Positions 1-17,751 of a stretch of DNA of 64,000 bases are shown in pieces. Source of the stretch: an uncultured Methanosarcinaceae archaeon (lineage in GTDB: Archaea; Halobacteriota; Methanosarcinia; Methanosarcinales; Methanosarcinaceae); the NCBI GenBank assembly GCA_963833425.1, contig CAWHXP010000004.1, positions 1-64,000 on the forward strand, written 5' to 3'. Each line of letters opens with the position of its first letter. Positions within the stretch are counted from its first letter, which is position 1. Both the position numbers and the translations under genes were made by a program. The notes beneath the pieces were generated by a model. The model searched no databases. It was not told the origin of the DNA and worked only from the letters and a program-made list of their open reading frames with translations.

Positions 1-82
1 TCTATGCATAAGAAAGCTGTTTATATTCAAAACTTAATCCAGGAAAACGGTAGTCATAACAATTCAGCTTGGATAAAAAAGC

Positions 83-290
83 ATGACAAAAATTACCTTT
101 AATCAATTTGCATTGAAAACTGTTTTAATTCTTATCCTTACACTACTAAGTGCTTCTGCTACATCAGACAACCTTCGAGAGCTTGATATAATAAAGGAAT
201 TAGTCGAGTAAACTAAGCAAATTAGATGAAGCCATAAAAGCATATGACAAAGCAATTGAAATTAAGCTGCTGTTTTCAAAGTCAAGGTAA
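83..290 (+). pseudogene. TPR-protein remnant
   Basis: Encodes DEAIKAYDKAIEIK at ~226-267, matching the TPR repeats of 39010..39855; no intact ORF. Confidence 0.5.
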
Positions 291-568
291 CTAAACACTG
301 ACGTCTGAAATTTAATATAAAAAGCTTCAAAGAACAGATTAAAGAGAAAGATTTGAATAAGAATCCTATTAAAAATAAATCAGAGGTATAATCCTCTGTA
401 AATTTGTTGAATTTTTATTTGGTTGGAGCTCCAGGTGCTGGAGCTCACGTTTGAGTTCCAGTTTGATTTTAATTTTGGTCTTGGGTTTTCGCGTTCTTAA
501 GTTCTTATTTTTTACCAATTTATAATAATTTATATAATTTCGTAGCCGAGACTTAACATTTAAATCGG

Positions 569-790
569 TTACCAGCCCCAACTGCCGTAGCCGCCCCAGG
601 GATCGTACCAAGGCCAGCCGCCGTAGCCACCATAGCCACCAAAACCACCCCAGCCACCATAGCCGCCACCACGACCGCCAAAGCCGCCGCCGCGTGCTTC
701 AACTGCTACTGATGTCAACGATACAACAAAAAGTACTATCAGCGAAATCGCAAGTACCTTTTTCATTTTACTAGACGATTGTTTCAACAT
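569..790 (-). CDS. small secreted Gly/Tyr/Trp-rich protein
   Basis: Signal-peptide-like MKKVLAISLIVLFVVSLTSVAVEA followed by GGY/GGW repeats; AGGTGA RBS upstream. Confidence 0.75.
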   Translation of the reverse strand: MLKQSSSKMKKVLAISLIVLFVVSLTSVAVEARGGGFGGRGGGYGGWGGFGGYGGYGGWPWYDPWGGYGSWGW

Positions 791-992
791 TTATTTCACC
801 TATTTTATTTTTTCATCATTTTGTACTCAAATTTATCTGTTATATCAAAATCGATATTAACCAACTGATTTTTTGTAGGTTGAATAGTTACATCTGCTAT
901 TTTATGTTCAAGTATATATTTGTCTGATAAAATCACATACTCTCTAATGCGTGTTTTATTTATGGCATTATTTTATGAATCTTCTAACTTTT

Positions 993-1916
993 TTATATTG
1001 TTTTTACTTGTACCGGTAAATTTGCAACAAAGCTAGCATCATGCATACCTTTCCTGACAGATTGCACTACAGCCGGTTTCACTCCCGCTCTTCTGGCAAT
1101 TTCGTCATCACTTAAGCCGCTCTTTCTGATGCCAACGAGTATGTCGTCCAACTTGAGATAAGATAAACCAATTAACTTTTCGTTTGGCATGCTGTCCCCA
1201 AACAGGTCAGCAGAAGATGCTTTGTTTACGATGTGATCAGGTACCCCAATATGCTTAGCCAGCTGTTTAATCTGCGTTTTGTATAGATGCGACATGATAG
1301 AAATGTCACAGGCACCATCACCATACCGGTCGTACACGCCCATAGTTAACTCGGAATTGTCATCGGTGCCCACAAGTAGGTAATTTTTGAGAGTGGTATA
1401 GAAATATAATATAGTCATCCTAAAGTGTATTTTTGCTGCCCCAACAGCCATATAGTCCTTAACAGATGTGGAACATGCACCTACAGTAGCCGCTTGGTTG
1501 AATTTTTCAGGCACCTTATCACTGACTATGGCAACGTTTTTGAAGGCCTGCTCTATGTCAAGACCTTTTTCGCGAGAAAGGATGTCGTACGCACCCAGCT
1601 CTTTTAGAAAAGGTGAGATAACGATCTTCTGGTGAGGTATTCCGAGGCTCTTAGCCAAGTTCATACCGTCGTCTGTGTTCTGTGGCTTAGTATCACGATC
1701 GGGCAGTATAAGACCGAAAACCTTATCCTTGCCTAGTGCTTCAACACACAGGTACGCAACTGTCGATGAATCAAGCCCACCAGAAAGGCCAACCACTACG
1801 CCATCTTTTTTAAAATTTTTTACCTCTTTCTTAACAAATTCAACGATTTCCTTCCGGGTCTTTTCTGCGTCAAATTTCAGATATTCCGGGAAGCCTAATT
1901 TTTCTGTTTCTGTCAT
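993..1916 (-). CDS. nadE: NH3-dependent NAD+ synthetase family protein (divergent)
   Basis: GLSGGLDSS PP-loop, LVGT..SE..G..RYGDG, LYKTQI, SADL motifs; no glutaminase domain; start at MTETEK after GGAGATGA RBS. Confidence 0.85.
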   Translation of the reverse strand: MTETEKLGFPEYLKFDAEKTRKEIVEFVKKEVKNFKKDGVVVGLSGGLDSSTVAYLCVEALGKDKVFGLILPDRDTKPQNTDDGMNLAKSLGIPHQKIVISPFLKELGAYDILSREKGLDIEQAFKNVAIVSDKVPEKFNQAATVGACSTSVKDYMAVGAAKIHFRMTILYFYTTLKNYLLVGTDDNSELTMGVYDRYGDGACDISIMSHLYKTQIKQLAKHIGVPDHIVNKASSADLFGDSMPNEKLIGLSYLKLDDILVGIRKSGLSDDEIARRAGVKPAVVQSVRKGMHDASFVANLPVQVKTI

Positions 1917-2051
1917 AAAATCATCTCCATATAGTTTCAATTTTCTCACACACTGAATCTACAGCAGGACTTACGCGCTTAGATATATAATCAACAGCAA
2001 TAGGCCAATAACTTTCTAATCCTGCTATAGATAAAAATAATAAACAAAGAT

Positions 2052-2083
2052 TATTTAAACATGTTGTTACCATTGTGGTGACA
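2052..2083 (-). promoter_or_regulatory. palindromic operator TGTTAC-N7-GTGACA plus TTTAAATA TATA box facing nadE
   Basis: Same motif and 5-nt spacing to TATA as at 3344-3375 and 4719-4750. Confidence 0.65.
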
Positions 2084-2256
2084 TTTGTTTTAAGATAAAT
2101 CTTCAGTTAATTTGTAAACTTGAAAAGCTCGAGCTAACCGAAAATGAAGAAAAAAATGTAGCAGTTTAGATGTTAAAAATATGAACAAAATACGTTGGCA
2201 GAATTCTTGGGAGGAGATTTTAGCTTACTTGAATATTCGGATCAAATGTATTAATT

Positions 2257-2409
2257 TGCCTTTGTAGCAAAAATAATATTTCGGCTGTTTGTACCATAAT
2301 TCTTACCATTAAATTTTATTTTTCCGGTTATGAGAATTATTATTTTTTTTCCTTATTGTGAAGGTTTACACTGATTTTTTAATAGAGTCAGATTTTTTGT
2401 ACCAGAACA
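2257..2409. mobile_element. degenerate IS6-type MITE
   Basis: Ends TGTAGCAAAAATAATATTT ... CAGATTTTTTGTACCAGAAC resemble the ends of the MITE at 10074-10193. Confidence 0.45.
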
Positions 2410-2573
2410 GATTAGTCACGGTTAAGGTTACTTCCCTACTAATACTATCCTATTTCAAATGTCTCCTGCAAAACTTACTATTTTCAGTGAATTCCTCTCA
2501 TAATTTTTTATAACTAAACACTTGCAGAAGAGTTAAGAAATTTGAGAAATTTGGTTAACTCTAAAAATAGCTG

Positions 2574-3344
2574 TTACCTGTCTTCTATGATATAACTTGG
2601 CTCAATTAGTCTTTCATAGATTGATTTTTGTAAATAGGCTACCATAGGCAAGTTAATTATCAAGCCTTCTCTTTTGTTCCCTGGTCTGTAAACTGTTATT
2701 GATACCTTTCCATCAGCAATCATAAAAAATTCTTCTTTATACTGAACACCGTCAATTGCAATTTTATTCATAAAACTTGTAAACTTTTTTGAAGTTTCTC
2801 TGAAATCAAGAGACATTGATGTGAACTTGTCCAGTTTATCAACGATAAGCTTTACACTATAAATTTTTTCTACTTTATTTATCTCGGGCTCTAACTCCTT
2901 TAGAAATTCGGGATTGGTAGAATAGATAATCAATTCTTCCCTAATTCCGTCTATGATTTCACGTATACGGGTCTTCAGTACACGGTCACTCTGAATATAC
3001 CAAACAGGAGAATTTTTTGGGAGTTCATAGTTTAGTTCCTTGAACTGGTTAAGTGTATCGATTGAGCAGTTTAAAAAATCGTCTCTTATTTCTTCTATTA
3101 CATTTTTGGGATCAACTGCTCGGAAATATGTTGGAGATCCCTGCCTCACTTCAAGATAGCCTTTTTTCGCAAGCGCGTTAAGAATCTCATAGACTTTAGA
3201 TCTCGGAACATTTGTAACTTCATGAATCGCACTAGCCGTAGCTTCTCCCAAACTCACAAGTCCTACATATGTTTTTGCTTCATTTTCGGTTAGCCCGAGC
3301 TTTTCAAGATTACGAATTAACTGAAGATTTATTTGTGGATGCAT
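2574..3344 (-). CDS. TrmB-family transcriptional regulator
   Basis: LEKLGLTENEAKTYVGL...VPRSKVYEILNALAKKGYL winged HTH; C-terminal FMIADGK effector domain. Confidence 0.9.
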   Translation of the reverse strand: MHPQINLQLIRNLEKLGLTENEAKTYVGLVSLGEATASAIHEVTNVPRSKVYEILNALAKKGYLEVRQGSPTYFRAVDPKNVIEEIRDDFLNCSIDTLNQFKELNYELPKNSPVWYIQSDRVLKTRIREIIDGIREELIIYSTNPEFLKELEPEINKVEKIYSVKLIVDKLDKFTSMSLDFRETSKKFTSFMNKIAIDGVQYKEEFFMIADGKVSITVYRPGNKREGLIINLPMVAYLQKSIYERLIEPSYIIEDR

Positions 3345-3375
3345 GTTACCACCATAGTAACAACAAATTTAAATA
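3344..3375. promoter_or_regulatory. palindromic operator TGTTAC-N7-GTAACA plus TATA; probable leaderless trmB promoter
   Basis: Operator 3344-3362 abuts the trmB ATG; TTTAAATA at 3368-3375. Confidence 0.65.
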
Positions 3376-3427
3376 ACTTTCTGTTTTATTGTCTGTATCC
3401 TATTAGTATAAACTAAACAAAGTGGTA

Positions 3428-3540
3428 GGATTCAAGGTTAGTGAAAGTGAAAGAAACATCAAACTTTACCAGACACAACATGGTGAAGTCGCATATAATA
3501 TTTGATTGACTACAGGTAAAGGTTTACCTGTATTTTTCGA
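3428..3540 (+). pseudogene. amtB 3'-end remnant with its terminator hairpin (duplicate of ~6303-6410)
   Basis: GTTAGTGAAAGTGAA...CATGGTGAAGTCGCATATAA...TACAGGTA..TACCTGTATTTTTC is shared with the amtB 3' end. Confidence 0.85.
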
Positions 3541-3583
3541 AAAACCTCTCAATTAATAAGTAGAGATAATAGGAAGTGGTAAC

Positions 3584-4117
3584 ATGGCTGAAAGACAAGT
3601 TGAAAATGTGGTTATCGAAATCCCAAGAGGAAGTCGGAATAAGTATGAGTATGATAGAGACAAAAAAGTTTTCAAACTCGATAGAGTGCTTTTTTCTTCA
3701 ATTGTGTATCCATGTGAATATGGTTTTTTTCCAAATACTTTAGCACTTGACGGAGACCCTTTAGATGCACTTGTTTTAACATCGGAACCTACATTTCCGG
3801 GATGTGAAATAGATGTGTACCCGGTTGCATTGTTTGACATGGAAGATTATGACGGAAGAGACCAGAAGATACTATGTGTTCCAAAAAATGATCCATTATG
3901 TAACATTGTAGAAATGCTTGAGAAAGTTCCCCCGCATTTATTAGCGAAAATCACTGACTTTTTTGAAAATTATAAGAAATTAGAGAAAAAAAAAGTGATA
4001 GTTATGGGTTGGAAAGGTCTCGAAGAAGCTGTCAGCATACTCAATGAAACTAAATCTCGATATCTGGTAGCATATAAAAATATGGAGAGTGAAATGAATG
4101 TTGAAACAATCATCTAG
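3584..4117 (+). CDS. ppa: family I soluble inorganic pyrophosphatase
   Basis: IEIPRGSRNKYE, YGFFPNT, DGDPLDALV, D.KILCVP, FFENYK motifs. Confidence 0.93.
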   Translation: MAERQVENVVIEIPRGSRNKYEYDRDKKVFKLDRVLFSSIVYPCEYGFFPNTLALDGDPLDALVLTSEPTFPGCEIDVYPVALFDMEDYDGRDQKILCVPKNDPLCNIVEMLEKVPPHLLAKITDFFENYKKLEKKKVIVMGWKGLEEAVSILNETKSRYLVAYKNMESEMNVETII

Positions 4118-4121
4118 TAAA

Positions 4122-4370
4122 ATGAAAAAGATACTGGCTATTTTGCTGGCAGTTTTTTTGTTTAGTCTGTGACAGCAATGGCAGTGGGTGCACATGGCGG
4201 CGTTAGATATACTAACGGTTATGGAGATGGGTATGGTTGAGTATAGTAGCGATTATGGCCAAGGCGGTATTTATAATACCCTATATTATGCTGGGAACCC
4301 TTACAGAGATTATACAGCCGCAAACCAACCAAATTACGCAGGTTATATCTATTAATCATGGAGAGCTATC
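4122..4370 (+). pseudogene. frameshifted paralog of the small secreted Gly/Tyr-rich protein
   Basis: MKKILAILLAVFLF then a frameshift to VTAMAVGAHGGVRYTNGYGDGYG. Confidence 0.55.
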
Positions 4371-4529
4371 TCTAGCTATTTAGGACTTACTCAGTTTAAA
4401 TAAGTAAAGATCACTTATTGCGCTGAAAAATTTAATATTGAACATATCGACCAAGTTCTGTTTTTTTCACCAGAACTCTATGAACTATTTTTTTAAGGTT
4501 ACTCCCTTACCTATACCCTCCTATCTTTT

Positions 4530-4718
4530 TATTTTGGGCTCAAACTCCTGCAAAAATTTGGGACTAGTAAAAGATAATCAATTCTTCCCTAATTCCGTCT
4601 ATAATTTCACGAGCTGTAGCTTCTCTCAAACTCAAAGTCCTACCTACGCTTTTGCTTCATTTTCGATTTGCTCGAGCTTTTGAAGATACGAATTAACTGA
4701 AGATTTATTTGCAGATAT
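4530..4718 (-). pseudogene. internally deleted trmB duplicate
   Basis: Blocks match trmB 2885-2963 (GATAATCAATTCTTCCCTAATTCCGTCTAT) and 3235-3340. Confidence 0.85.
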
Positions 4719-4750
4719 TGTTACCACTAAAGTAACAACAAATTTAAATA
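4719..4750 (+). promoter_or_regulatory. operator TGTTAC-N7-GTAACA plus TATA upstream of glnK-amtB
   Basis: TGTTACCACTAAAGTAACA at 4719-4737; TTTAAATA at 4743-4750. Confidence 0.65.
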
Positions 4751-4823
4751 ATTTTCTGATTTATTGTCTGTATCCTATAAAGTACAAACTACGTATGTAG
4801 AACATCTATTGGTGGTGATTTCT

Positions 4824-5174
4824 TTGAAATATATAATCGCAATGATAAGACCTGAAAAGCTTGATGCAGTCAAAAACGAGCTTCAAAAAATTGAAGTAAA
4901 TGGACTTACAGTGTCATCCGTTTCAGGCTACGGTTCTCAGAGAGGATATTTGGAATTGGATAGAAATAAAGCTCAAAATTACGAAGCACACCTGCTTGAA
5001 ATGATCAAACTTGAGATTGCAGTTAATGATTTTAGTCTTCAAATGACGATGGACGCAATCAAGAGAGGAGCAAAAGACGAAGACGGCTATGTCGGGAGCG
5101 GAAAAATATTCGTACTGCCTTTAGAGAATGCAATCAGAATTCGTACTAGTGAAAAAGGATCCGATGCTATTTAA
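4824..5174 (+). CDS. glnK: PII nitrogen regulatory protein
   Basis: KYIIAMIRPEKL, GYGSQRG, GSGKIFV, IRIRT motifs; TTG start after GGTGGTGA; directly upstream of amtB. Confidence 0.9.
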   Translation: MKYIIAMIRPEKLDAVKNELQKIEVNGLTVSSVSGYGSQRGYLELDRNKAQNYEAHLLEMIKLEIAVNDFSLQMTMDAIKRGAKDEDGYVGSGKIFVLPLENAIRIRTSEKGSDAI

Positions 5175-5187
5175 GTGGTGATCGAAA

Positions 5188-6381
5188 ATGACTATTGTAG
5201 CAGCAGATACTGCGTGGGTATTGATTTCTTCAGCACTTGTATTATTAATGCTTCCTGGGCTTGCACTATTCTATGGAGGGCTAGTCCAGCGTAAAAATGT
5301 CTTGAGCAGCATGATGCATTCATTTGTTGCAATGGGCGTCATAGCTGTTGAATGGGTGATACTAGGTTATTCGCTTGCTTTTGCGCCGGGAAACTCGTTC
5401 ATAGGCGGCCTTGACAATATCTTTTTAAGAGGCATTAATCCTTACACTTTAACAGGTACCATCCCAACATATGCGTTTATTGCGTTTCAGGGTATGTTTG
5501 CAATAATTACTCCCGCCCTTATTTCAGGTGCTATTGTGGGCCGTATCAAATTCAAGTCTTATATTACATTCATCTTATTGTGGGGTATCCTCGTCTATGC
5601 TCCTATAGCTCATTGGGTATGGGGTGGTGGATTTCTCACGGGAAAGGACCTTGACTTTGCAGGTGGCACGGTTGTCCATATATCATCCGGTATATCCTCC
5701 CTTGCAATTTTAACTTATCTGGGCAAGAGAAGGGGATATGGAGTGGATTCGCTCAAACCTCACAACATCACATTCACTCTAATTGGCGCTGGGCTACTCT
5801 GGTTCGGATGGTTCGGGTTCAATGCCGGTTCTGCCCTTGCTGCAAACGAGATCGCAGCAGTTGCATTTTTGACCACTTTAGTGGCACCAGCAACTGCAGG
5901 CCTTTGTTGGATGGCTCTAGAATGGCATCACTTAGGTCATCCAACATCGCTTGGTTTTTCAACAGGAGTTCTGGCTGGATTAGTCGCAATCACCCCTGCA
6001 GCTGGTTACGTCACACCCGCAGCAGCGATTCCAATTGGTCTAATAGCAGGTATCATATGTTATAAAGCTGTGGAACTCAAAGGAAAGTTTGGATACGATG
6101 ATTCCCTGGATGTTTTCGGCGTCCACGGGGTCGGTGGAATGACAGGGGCACTTTTGACTGGTGTATTTGCAAGTGTAGGGGCATCAGGGCTCCTTTTTGG
6201 TAATTCTAGTCAAATGATAACTCAGCTTGAAGGTATCGTTGCATCAGCTGTATATGCAGCCGTCGGCACATTGATTATCGGATTTGTGATCAATAAAACG
6301 ATGGGACTCAAAGTTAGTGAAAGTGAAGAAAACATCGGACTTGACCAAACACAGCATGGTGAAGTCGCATATAACACTTAA
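5188..6381 (+). CDS. amtB: ammonium transporter
   Basis: DFAGGTVVH, WFGWFGFNAGS, DDSLDVFGVHG; twin-His retained. Confidence 0.95.
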   Translation: MTIVAADTAWVLISSALVLLMLPGLALFYGGLVQRKNVLSSMMHSFVAMGVIAVEWVILGYSLAFAPGNSFIGGLDNIFLRGINPYTLTGTIPTYAFIAFQGMFAIITPALISGAIVGRIKFKSYITFILLWGILVYAPIAHWVWGGGFLTGKDLDFAGGTVVHISSGISSLAILTYLGKRRGYGVDSLKPHNITFTLIGAGLLWFGWFGFNAGSALAANEIAAVAFLTTLVAPATAGLCWMALEWHHLGHPTSLGFSTGVLAGLVAITPAAGYVTPAAAIPIGLIAGIICYKAVELKGKFGYDDSLDVFGVHGVGGMTGALLTGVFASVGASGLLFGNSSQMITQLEGIVASAVYAAVGTLIIGFVINKTMGLKVSESEENIGLDQTQHGEVAYNT

Positions 6382-6382
6382 G

Positions 6383-6410
6383 TACAGGTATACCTTTACC
6401 TGTATTTTTC
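6383..6410 (+). terminator. hairpin + T-tract after amtB
   Basis: TACAGGTA-N6-TACCTGTA-TTTTT; the copy at 3511-3537 keeps the stem with a different loop. Confidence 0.65.
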
Positions 6411-6451
6411 AAATTTTGGTCATGGACATCTAAAGACTTTTCTCAAAACCA

Positions 6452-7231
6452 ATGATTCCAGAACAAGCATCACTTTCGGTTATGGTGACTGGCATGGATC
6501 TAAAAGATGTTATTTCAATTGTATCACTTATATTAACTGTAATAATAGCGACGTTTACCTTTAGACTTAATAGTGAGCAAACAAAAATTAAGCACGTTTT
6601 AAAGCATGACATCATGAATCGTTTTTTAAGTTGTTATAGGGACATTAATCAACTTAATGACTACATTTGGCTTGCTTATAAAATTGGTGCACCTATAAAT
6701 AGAGATTTTGTTTTAGAGTTTTACTCAAAGAAAGCATTCGAACTTAGTGATATTCAAAGCACTGGTCATTATTTCTATATTTTTAAAGTGATAGAAATTT
6801 TTATGATTGGAACAAATATTAAATCAGAAAAACAAAATATAATAAAAAGCTACGAGTCGTATGTTAAAGCTTCAAAGGCGGAATATACTTATGATGTGAG
6901 TCCATTCTTAAATGATTATTTGAACAAAAACAGTAATAGAGAAGTTAATGATATACTGAGGGAGCTTATATACAACAGTTGGCATCATCTTCTTTGTATA
7001 ATTCAAAAGTTAAAATCTGAGCCCAACTCTATTGAAGACTCTAACCTCATTAAATTTACAGGAATGGAGATTAATACCCAAGAAGACCGCGAAAGAGCAT
7101 TTATCATGTACACCATTTTGAATAGTTATAGTAAAAATATTAAATTTTTGTTAAGTTTTTTATATTGTTATGAAAACTCACTTAAAAAACAAGTTGATAA
7201 AGTGGTAGACTCTACATTGCTGCCGTTTTGA
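6452..7231 (+). CDS. hypothetical protein with N-terminal TM helix
   Basis: 259-aa AT-rich ORF; hydrophobic VISIVSLILTVIIATFTF; start may be MDLKD. Confidence 0.65.
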   Translation: MIPEQASLSVMVTGMDLKDVISIVSLILTVIIATFTFRLNSEQTKIKHVLKHDIMNRFLSCYRDINQLNDYIWLAYKIGAPINRDFVLEFYSKKAFELSDIQSTGHYFYIFKVIEIFMIGTNIKSEKQNIIKSYESYVKASKAEYTYDVSPFLNDYLNKNSNREVNDILRELIYNSWHHLLCIIQKLKSEPNSIEDSNLIKFTGMEINTQEDRERAFIMYTILNSYSKNIKFLLSFLYCYENSLKKQVDKVVDSTLLPF

Positions 7232-7593
7232 TTAAGTAAAAATAATATTAAAGTTAGATTTTTAGACCGTAATCTGTTGTAACATGGTTAGGCCCCTTTG
7301 TAAAAATTACAGTACAAGTATGTAAATTATGGATGACGAACAAAAGTCAAAATATCCGAGGGAAATTTATCAATATTATAAACCTGTTCCAAATAGCTGA
7401 TTTATATATATGACTTCACCAAGAACAGAGTAATTTAAATTATTGATTTGTTCTTTTTTAATCACATCCAAAGCTTCAATTACTTTTAAAGTCTTACTTA
7501 AGAGCAAGAATCCTGAAAGCCTAGCTTTTAGTTTTTTTTAAATACTCTAACATTATTTTTTTCTTATTTTTCCTATTTATATTTAGAATTTAG

Positions 7594-7705
7594 GCTAATT
7601 AATTTCAGTGTTCTATGAGCTCCATATGTTCTATAAGTTATATAAGTTGTATAAGTTCTATGAGTTTCCTGAGTAATAGATTAGCAATATTTTCTCATTT
7701 TGAGT
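7594..7705 (-). repeat. 9-bp-unit array module, inverted copy
   Basis: Reverse complement aligns with 16665-16755; about 8 units of CTYATRGAR. Confidence 0.75.
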
Positions 7706-7707
7706 GA

Positions 7708-7858
7708 TGCACAGTTTTTGTAATAAAATCTATGAATTTCCTAAATGCCATCAGTAATAAGAAAACATTGCTAGTCTAGGATTCGTAGAACACATGGAGC
7801 TTATATGACTCATAGAACATGTAGAGCTCATAGAACATGTGAAACTAATTAAACTAAC
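7708..7858 (+). repeat. 9-bp-unit array module
   Basis: Leader TTTTGTAATAAAATCTATGAATTTCCTAAATGCCATCAGTAAT shared with the copy at 8761; 7 units at 7782-7844. Confidence 0.8.
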
Positions 7859-8100
7859 CACAGTCCAAAATTCAAATTTGCAATTCTGTAAAAAAATTTG
7901 AAAAAAACCAATAAAAACGACTTTTATTTTCATGCTCGATAACAAAATTAAGATGAAGCAAACAGTAGATTTTATAGTTAAAGTCATTATTTTCGTTGTA
8001 TTTTTGAGTATTTTAGTAGGATTATTTGCTTTTTTTACTTATTGAAATAGACTTAATATTAGGACCAGAATCTAATCCGCTTACTAATTAGTTTTTGTTT

Positions 8101-17379: not shown

Positions 17380-17751
17380 TCAAAAATGATATCAATCTTT
17401 CAAATAAGAGCGTGCCTTTAAATAAAATCAACTTTTACAATTGTATAATGAGCGAGCTTGACTTTAAATGCTGTACTGTACATTCTGTGTGTTTATTCAC
17501 AGTACTTTAAAAAAAACACAGTTACACACAGTGTAACAAATATATGGCAGGACAAAAACTTGACTTAGAATATTAATTAAATCGATGATTGAAGAATAAG
17601 ATTGTAAAAATAAAATATACCCATATTCAAAAATTTCCTTAATATTGGTAGCATCCACTATTGCAAACTTTAATTATTAATTAGAATTTGAATGATTATT
17701 CCTAATAACAAAACCAATTCTTTTATTACTAATGATCCCTACGTAAATATA

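Follow-up and report, generated by a model that had tools for sequence, protein, structure and literature searches.

The window analyzed here is the first 64,000 nucleotides (nt) of contig CAWHXP010000004.1 from an uncultured Methanosarcinaceae archaeon, whose 4.07-Mb assembly (36% G+C) is designated G000; coordinates refer to the window unless another contig is named. Close to its left end lie a gene of the NAD-synthase family (nadE-like), a gene for a TrmB-like regulator, an inorganic pyrophosphatase gene (ppa) and the P-II protein and ammonium transporter pair glnK-amtB, and profile matches confirm all five gene calls of the initial annotation (NAD_synthase, TrmB, pyrophosphatase, P-II and Amt). 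Set among these genes are three copies of a 19-bp inverted repeat, each accompanied by a TATA box. The joint explanation that we consider best, and somewhat probable as a whole, is that this repeat is the autorepression operator of a genus-specific trmB, that the cassette carrying it was duplicated in a peat subclade of Methanosarcina, and that the copies may have been co-opted by the nadE-like gene and by glnK-amtB.

The strict pattern, TGTTACCA-N5-GTRACA, matches exactly at the three operator positions given in Table 1, compared with no match in 100 shuffles of the window, and the whole assembly holds these three matches and none further. The spacing from operator to TTTAAATA or its complement is 5 nt at every site, as annotated, and the site at 3344 does lie between the TATA box and the trmB ATG, where it overlaps the start codon. 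The direction assigned to the boxes stands only in part: a box is present at all three sites, but its orientation is unreadable from the box itself because the core, ATTTAAAT, is a perfect palindrome. For a relaxed form of the operator, TGTTAC-N7-GTAACA, base composition predicts 0.47 exact occurrences genome-wide; four are found, three of them cassettes. With up to one mismatch allowed, 20 places are found in G000 compared with approximately 17 expected; the relaxed palindrome is specific only in its exact form and, at this tolerance, stands at chance level outside the module copies.

Genus-wide comparison ties the palindrome to trmB itself. An ortholog of the 256-amino-acid TrmB-like protein is present in all 24 other genomes drawn from the genus, and the trmB promoter has a single layout in each of the 20 loci read (the window's own included): a sequence, AGAAAAG, resembling the transcription factor B (TFB) recognition element (BRE), followed by ATTTAA(A/G)T, approximately 4 nt, TGTTAC-N7-GGTAAC, 0-2 nt and the ATG. 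This search beside the trmB orthologs found the operator arms exact in 19 of the 20 loci, the remaining one (L002; L-numbers denote loci in related genomes) having a single arm mismatch, and the same layout recurs in six of six further named loci. Both at these loci and in an alignment of 12 cassette copies from G000 and four related loci (five with intact trmB, seven with remnants), the arms are invariant and the spacer is variable, as expected of a dimeric helix-turn-helix protein. The usual archaeal distance from TATA box to start would have transcription begin at or just before the trmB ATG; since the first T of the TATA box is 31 nt from this ATG, the operator falls between the TATA box and the start of a gene whose mRNA would be leaderless or nearly so. 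Bound at this position, the regulator would obstruct RNA polymerase at the gene that encodes it. Autorepression had been proposed in the initial annotation and is supported by the genus-wide retention of the site between TATA and ATG, a conservation that strongly backs autoregulation through the predicted palindromic operator and makes it the well-supported part of our interpretation. In the accessible part of PMC4158304, TrmB-family operators are described as inverted repeats that repress when placed over the start site, downstream of BRE/TATA, and activate when placed upstream of it, TrmBL1/Tgr and other archaeal repressors at the TATA-to-start position are described as blocking RNA polymerase recruitment, and autoregulation is proposed for Tgr.

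The genomic setting of trmB differs within the genus. In most species trmB is followed by a gene for an MBL-fold protein and by Rpr2, with an MMPL-like transporter operon approximately 500 bp upstream. In a subclade found in peat and soil assemblies, which comprises G000, G019, G064 and G067 together with the named loci L045-L048 and L055 (the loci overlap the genomes in content and are not to be counted twice), trmB is away from this neighborhood and stands back to back with glnK-amtB, and a further cassette precedes the nadE-like gene. The TrmB proteins of the subclade are 85-88% identical, and the MBL-Rpr2 pair of G000 is found on contig C9 (C-numbers denote other contigs of G000) without trmB before it.

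Alignment identifies all three window sites as copies of one module, composed of the trmB 5' end, the operator and the palindromic TATA box, with trmB intact in one copy and reduced to a dead remnant in the other two. Direct repeats pair 3225-3403 with 4603-4778, and the third site is therefore a trmB promoter copy with an internally deleted trmB. Further direct repeats (D1 and D5) pair the amtB 3' end at 6292-6413 with 3416-3541, and by this alignment glnK-amtB was deleted at copy 2 with the amtB tail left behind. The site before the nadE-like gene had been regarded as lying outside the local duplication and hence as independent support. This is refuted by the base-for-base alignment of the adjoining sequence with the trmB 5' end and by a fourth, intact cassette at C10:31944-33822, in which a trmB paralog (trmB2, 85% identical) is back to back with a nadE-like paralog (nadE2) and the palindrome, 5 nt from the TATA box, stands at the trmB ATG. 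Given the remnant at site 1 and the intact pair on C10, the three sites and their exact 5-nt spacing are thus inherited rather than convergent. Across three subclade genomes, full palindromes are found in cassette copies only, except for C17:10369 in G000 and its one-strand counterpart at G019:C51:1070.

Table 1. Positions in the window of the operator copies, their TATA boxes and the surrounding genes and remnants.
Feature	Position	Strand	Description or basis
nadE-like gene, 307 amino acids from ATG at 1916	993-1916	-	Accessory NAD-synthase-family PP-loop enzyme
Putative long 5' leader, ~135-nt region with 12-14 bp stem	1917-2051	-	Between TATA and nadE-like ATG
TATA box, module copy 1	2052-2059		TATTTAAA on +, TTTAAATA on -; module alignment
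Operator copy 1	2065-2083		Arms TGTTAC / GTGACA, one arm mismatch
Decayed trmB 5' remnant	2084-~2165	+	Base-for-base DNA alignment with first ~27 codons of intact trmB; start codon lost, frame broken
trmB-like regulator gene, 256 amino acids, intact	2574-3344	-	TrmBL2-like architecture: winged helix-turn-helix, linker, PLD-like C-terminal domain
Operator copy 2	3344-3362		Overlaps trmB start codon (CAT at 3342-3344); between TATA and expected trmB transcription start
TATA box, copy 2	3368-3375		Palindromic core ATTTAAAT; trmB promoter, possibly bidirectional
amtB 3' end remnant	3416-3541	+	Holds hairpin and T-run (3511-3537); direct repeats D1, D5, terminator-like match
ppa, inorganic pyrophosphatase	3584-4117	+	PF00719 E 8e-54
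Internally deleted trmB remnant, module copy 3	4493-4718	-	Direct repeats D3, D4, D6, D7, D8
Operator copy 3	4719-4737		Perfect arms
TATA box, copy 3	4743-4750		AACAAA just upstream; matches BRE/TATA of C8 glnK promoter
Decayed proximal glnK promoter	4774-4803	+	TATA-like ATAAAGT and degenerate canonical box; aligned with 6 other-species loci and C8
glnK (P-II), 116 amino acids from TTG at 4824	4824-5174	+	PF00543; GGTGGTGA ribosome-binding site before start
amtB ammonium transporter	5188-6381	+	PF00909 E 1.5e-120; TIGR00836 above cut-off

The pattern of decay around the dead remnants suggests that the copies have been co-opted for the neighboring gene. When the seven copies with a dead trmB are compared with the consensus of the intact copies, changes are found at 1/84 positions in the operator arms and 1/56 in the TATA box, as opposed to 17/49 in the operator spacer, 9/21 in the former start codon and 59/420 in the first 60 nt of the remnant coding sequence. 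The nominal Fisher value for arms versus coding sequence (p = 1.7e-4) is overstated because the cassette copies are partly orthologous, some being orthologous pairs, which leaves perhaps 4-5 independent lineages. In the mechanism that we propose, trmB left its usual neighborhood in the subclade and the cassette (trmB 5' end, operator and TATA box) would have been copied repeatedly by segmental duplication, with copies now back to back with glnK-amtB and with the accessory nadE-like gene. The symmetric TATA core is flanked on either side by A-rich, BRE-like sequence, so that firing of the cassette in both directions is probable; the divergent, nitrogen-related gene would in that case come under the same regulator, bound right against the BRE, an arrangement compatible with either activation or repression. 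On this divergent side the operator ends 5 nt from the TATA box and overlaps the BRE position by approximately 1 base.

The promoter region of glnK is consistent with such a transfer. Its translation start at the TTG was set by homology and by GGTGGTGA, with full-length matches of 68-74% in other genomes. In other species the canonical glnK promoter consists of TTAAATA, 8-9 nt, an AGGATA..GGATACC box and then a Shine-Dalgarno sequence; this proximal promoter is degraded in three of the four subclade copies (the window, L046 and L047) and less so in L045. On the glnK side of the cassette, the 14 nt made up of AACAAA and TTTAAATA match at every position the BRE/TATA in the canonical promoter of the glnK paralog on C8, and together these features favor firing of the cassette TATA box toward glnK and the nadE-like gene, with the operator immediately upstream of the BRE. 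The NrpR box of Methanococcus is GGAA-N6-TTCC, and the initial annotation was correct that none lies before glnK, at up to one mismatch; nor is GGTA-N6-TACC found there, and G000 encodes two NrpR-domain proteins. The conserved canonical glnK box is similar but not identical to the M. mazei NrpRI consensus GGTA-N6-TACC as it appears in the available portion of PMC3177094. Control of the nadE-like gene and glnK-amtB by this TrmB, as initially annotated, is thus no more than plausible in view of the kept arms and TATA boxes, the C8-like BRE/TATA and the decayed proximal box.

A number of findings weigh against co-option, and most of them also recommend a rival account, to which we give a minor though real share of our confidence: the palindrome would be the autoregulatory site of trmB only, its other copies, beside the nadE-like gene, the amtB remnant and ppa, and glnK, would be by-products of recent segmental duplications and deletions without any part in regulation, glnK would be served by its own proximal promoter, and the nadE-like gene by an unrecognized one. 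Every copy is indeed a homologous cassette, so that the copies are related by descent and the contrast between arms and coding sequence, resting on perhaps 4-5 lineages, is only suggestive. The remnants are young (approximately 14% diverged), little time has elapsed, and recency alone could explain part of the conservation. One dead copy, near 7288 in L047, keeps perfect arms and TATA box yet has no adjacent target, facing an amtB 3' remnant only. Outside the subclade the operator is absent from orthologous promoters: none of seven nadE-like loci carries it at up to one arm mismatch, and none of six glnK promoters of other species carries it within the 125 nt read. The proximal glnK promoter, homologous to the canonical ones, is still recognizable in the subclade, and its remnant might still be a working promoter. 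In other species the neighbors of trmB encode the MMPL-like transporter, the MBL-fold protein and Rpr2, with no nitrogen genes nearby, and an ancestral nitrogen link of this regulator family is without evidence. Furthermore, the right arm and spacer of the operator (GGTGGTAAC) also resemble a Shine-Dalgarno sequence. What this account handles poorly is that the dead copies retain arms and TATA far better than spacer, former ATG or remnant coding sequence, that the 166-nt intergenic region between trmB2 and nadE2 shows no second TATA-like box, and that decay has reached both the TATA and the box of the proximal glnK promoter in most subclade copies. We therefore continue to favor co-option of a duplicated autoregulatory cassette.

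Transcript data neither strengthen nor weaken that preference. Among public sequencing runs the best DNA share of the stretch is 0.36, and RNA runs reach 0.05-0.06. In four peat metatranscriptome contig sets, which are mostly 90-95% alike to the window (nearly all <99%) and come from relatives, no transcript starts or ends were seen. Two joints in the RNA contigs represent a different cassette arrangement in a relative, and the relatives' contigs do not bear on transcription starts or regulation here.

Co-option can be carried further into a direction switch, an extension that we offer as speculative and rather unlikely. Here a dimer at the symmetric ATTTAAAT TATA box would block the pre-initiation complex directed at leaderless trmB and, placed at the BRE edge of the opposite one, would favor it; the portable cassette, spread by duplication in peat Methanosarcina, would have taken a glnK-amtB copy out of NrpR-type control and brought an accessory ammonia-dependent amidating enzyme into the circuit, making the protein a TrmB-family nitrogen regulator.

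The full model of the initial annotation, in which TrmB represses its own gene and activates nadE, ppa, glnK and amtB for ammonia uptake, ATP-dependent amidation and removal of pyrophosphate (PPi), appears improbable. NH3-dependent NAD synthetase yields AMP and PPi, and the biochemical logic holds; ppa is near amtB in two related loci (L045 and L047), and a site upstream of BRE/TATA in the target direction has the geometry tied to TrmBL1/Tgr activation in the accessible text of PMC4158304. Activation is, however, one of two readings only, since a regulator seated right against the BRE, 5 nt from the TATA box, is no less likely to occlude TFB than to recruit it. Two of the supposed targets also fare badly. 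The nadE site is not independent, and with a canonical nadE elsewhere in G000 (C3:12403-13131) the substrate of the nadE-like enzyme is only presumed. Inclusion of ppa is unsupported: the gene is set apart from the cassette at 3344-3375 by an amtB 3' end that was copied together with its terminator (hairpin of 9 bp and T5, 3511-3537), and in L045 ppa directly follows amtB, which makes it an old downstream neighbor of amtB and probably not a gene placed under the operator.

Nor is a regulon supported beyond the physical copies of the module, where the initial annotation had envisaged one. Besides the orthologous nadE-like and glnK promoters described above, the remaining copies of glnK, amtB, ppa and canonical nadE in G000 were inspected, and their best upstream matches carry 3-5 arm mismatches. 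Candidate members of a wider regulon were rejected on position: in G000 the non-cassette places at up to one mismatch fall in coding repeats or are without promoter context, and across 10 further genomes strict matches that belong to no trmB cassette lie mostly within coding sequence, the rest being without promoter context. From these comparisons, no regulon of independently recruited sites is apparent, and the operator occurs only where a piece of trmB is physically present.

It is very improbable that some factor other than this TrmB reads the palindrome, or that the palindrome works as a hairpin of terminator type in DNA or RNA: a terminator scan flags 2065-2083 and the T-rich stretch after it as terminator-like, but the palindrome co-occurs with this trmB in every locus examined, lies upstream of the expected start in both directions and hence outside the RNA, and has the conserved arms and variable spacer that are the signature of a dimeric DNA-binding protein.

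The regulator itself is readily placed in the TrmB family, with a TrmB winged helix-turn-helix (PF01978) matched over the full profile at residues 13-80 (E 7e-25; 87.2 bits vs. a cut-off of 25.6). The PF11495 effector domain is matched weakly (23.7 bits vs. 22.2) at profile positions 2-97 of 233 only, and the second, sugar-binding subdomain is absent by protein length and from the AlphaFold2 model (mean predicted local distance difference test score of 74). Recognition-helix residues are invariant in 22 homologs, as is a Y52/E53 pair located at about the position of Y50/D51 of TrmB; Y50/D51 are listed as TrmB DNA-binding residues in the available part of PMC4158304. The closest solved structure in a PDB sequence search is TrmBL2 (E 1.3e-10), and Foldseek likewise returned TrmBL2 (E 2e-14) and TrmB 3qph (1e-9), with the fold search on the model indicating a PLD-like domain as in TrmB 2f5t and TrmBL2. 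The NCBIfam equivalogs for TrmB, TrmBL1, TrmBL2, halobacterial TrmB and MreA are all far below cut-off (76.5 vs. 650 bits for TrmBL1, 47 vs. 530 for TrmBL2, 22.5 vs. 100 for MreA, and 61.3 vs. 500 and 45.7 vs. 600 for the other two), which places the protein, on profile evidence, in a separate TrmB subfamily. This subfamily is almost confined to Methanosarcina, judging from 172 homologs at E <= 1e-8, nearly all of which, where a source name is given, are labeled Methanosarcina.

Comparison with characterized systems sharpens these distinctions. Like the protein described here, TrmBL1/Tgr of Thermococcales has a TrmB-family winged helix-turn-helix and an operator of hexamer inverted repeats, the TGM TATCAC-N5-GTGATA (PMC4158304, accessible part). 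In contrast, the arms here are TGTTAC/GTAACA with a spacer of 7 nt rather than 5, the 256-amino-acid protein lacks the sugar-binding C-subdomain, and the sites are confined to copies of its own promoter, with no glycolytic regulon. TrmBL2, the Pyrococcus/Thermococcus chromatin protein (PDB 5box, 5bqt), is of similar length and shares the two-domain layout with a PLD-like C-terminal domain, yet is only approximately 19-20% identical; it binds coding and intergenic DNA widely, according to the portions available of PMC3419521 and PMC4158304, whereas a single, sharply defined palindrome is conserved here. MreA (MA3302) of M. acetivorans is a TrmB-family regulator from the same genus (PMC3419521, in part), but has 139 amino acids, consists of the DNA-binding domain only and is without a defined motif as far as the accessible parts of PMC3419521 and PMC4158304 extend. 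By its equivalog score, the 256-amino-acid protein with its defined palindrome is not MreA; short paralogs at approximately 45-51% identity may be the MreA-like ones. The NrpR control of glnK1-amtB1 in M. mazei shares the glnK-amtB target operon, whereas here GGAA-N6-TTCC and GGTA-N6-TACC boxes are missing before glnK and the canonical box is degenerate. A literature search that covered papers outside subscription returned none that treats this regulator or describes nitrogen regulation by a TrmB-type protein in Methanosarcina.

The element can thus be described as a sharply defined, putative autoregulated operator of the TrmB family whose history of cassette duplication may have rewired nitrogen genes. 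Its precise definition was reached from sequence alone, for a regulator present in every Methanosarcina genome examined and probably in the model species as well. If co-option is true, the locus would offer a clear example from nature of nitrogen genes rewired away from NrpR through the copying of an archaeal promoter-operator cassette, with both directions served from a single symmetric TATA box under one repressor or activator; if co-option is false, the finding is one of ordinary autoregulation and local duplications.

The nadE-like gene is, by profile, an accessory paralog of the NAD-synthase family with a predicted enzyme role. Its product matches PF02540 (E 8e-57, 192.5 bits) and exceeds the TIGR00552 cut-off (185.9 vs. 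63.65), but it is below that of equivalog NF010587 (226.7 vs. 255). An insertion breaks the match into two parts. Across the genus, 10 of 59 genomes carry the gene, and five other Methanosarcina genomes contain only matches of approximately 30% identity. At the L082 nadE-like locus a palindrome with two mismatches overlaps the gene start. The putative leader of the gene is nearly identical in six copies (among the window, L045-L048 and C10), and RNAalifold predicts a stem with arms CTATAGCAGGA...TCCTGCTGTAG and zero compensatory pairs from five of the six, C10 being left out. An Rfam scan of positions 1-8000 at E up to 5 gave chance-level matches only, with none near the gathering score; the region could form a structured leader or serve as a second regulatory element. 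A word similar to GCGTAAGTCCT is also seen before more distant nadE-like orthologs, in L081 and, twice, in L082. A further NAD_synthase-family frame at C11:74108-74967 is broken by TGA stops and is a probable pseudogene of another NadE-like paralog.

Single occurrences of related motifs were also recorded. After the exact palindrome at C17:10369-10387, outside the trmB cassettes, its first 13 nt recur as a tandem repeat, with TTTATAATA coming next; no open reading frame (ORF) of >=70 amino acids lies within 2 kb downstream, and approximately 0.5-1 such sites are expected by chance. Within the window, AGTTACACACAGTGTAACA at 17520-17538 is a version of the palindrome with one mismatch and an A-run before it. 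The only two matches to GGTA-N6-TACC in the first 8 kb, at 3515-3528 and 6387-6400, are the amtB terminator hairpin and its copy, probably a coincidence. Downstream of amtB, an ORF at 6452-7231 (259 amino acids) has no Pfam or NCBIfam match and is 95% conserved in L055, there too behind a remnant of the amtB 3' end and a fragment of trmB. Small secreted proteins rich in Gly and Tyr, which open with the signal-like MLKQSSSKMKK, are encoded at 569-790 (-) and 4098-4355 (+); near 4170 the latter copy is broken, either by a TGA in frame or by a frameshift. The family has at least 12 further paralog matches across the genome, one of its members usually follows the nadE-like gene, and RNA contigs from relatives in the peat metatranscriptomes accumulate over 4028-4211, their summed word depth reaching up to approximately 4900.

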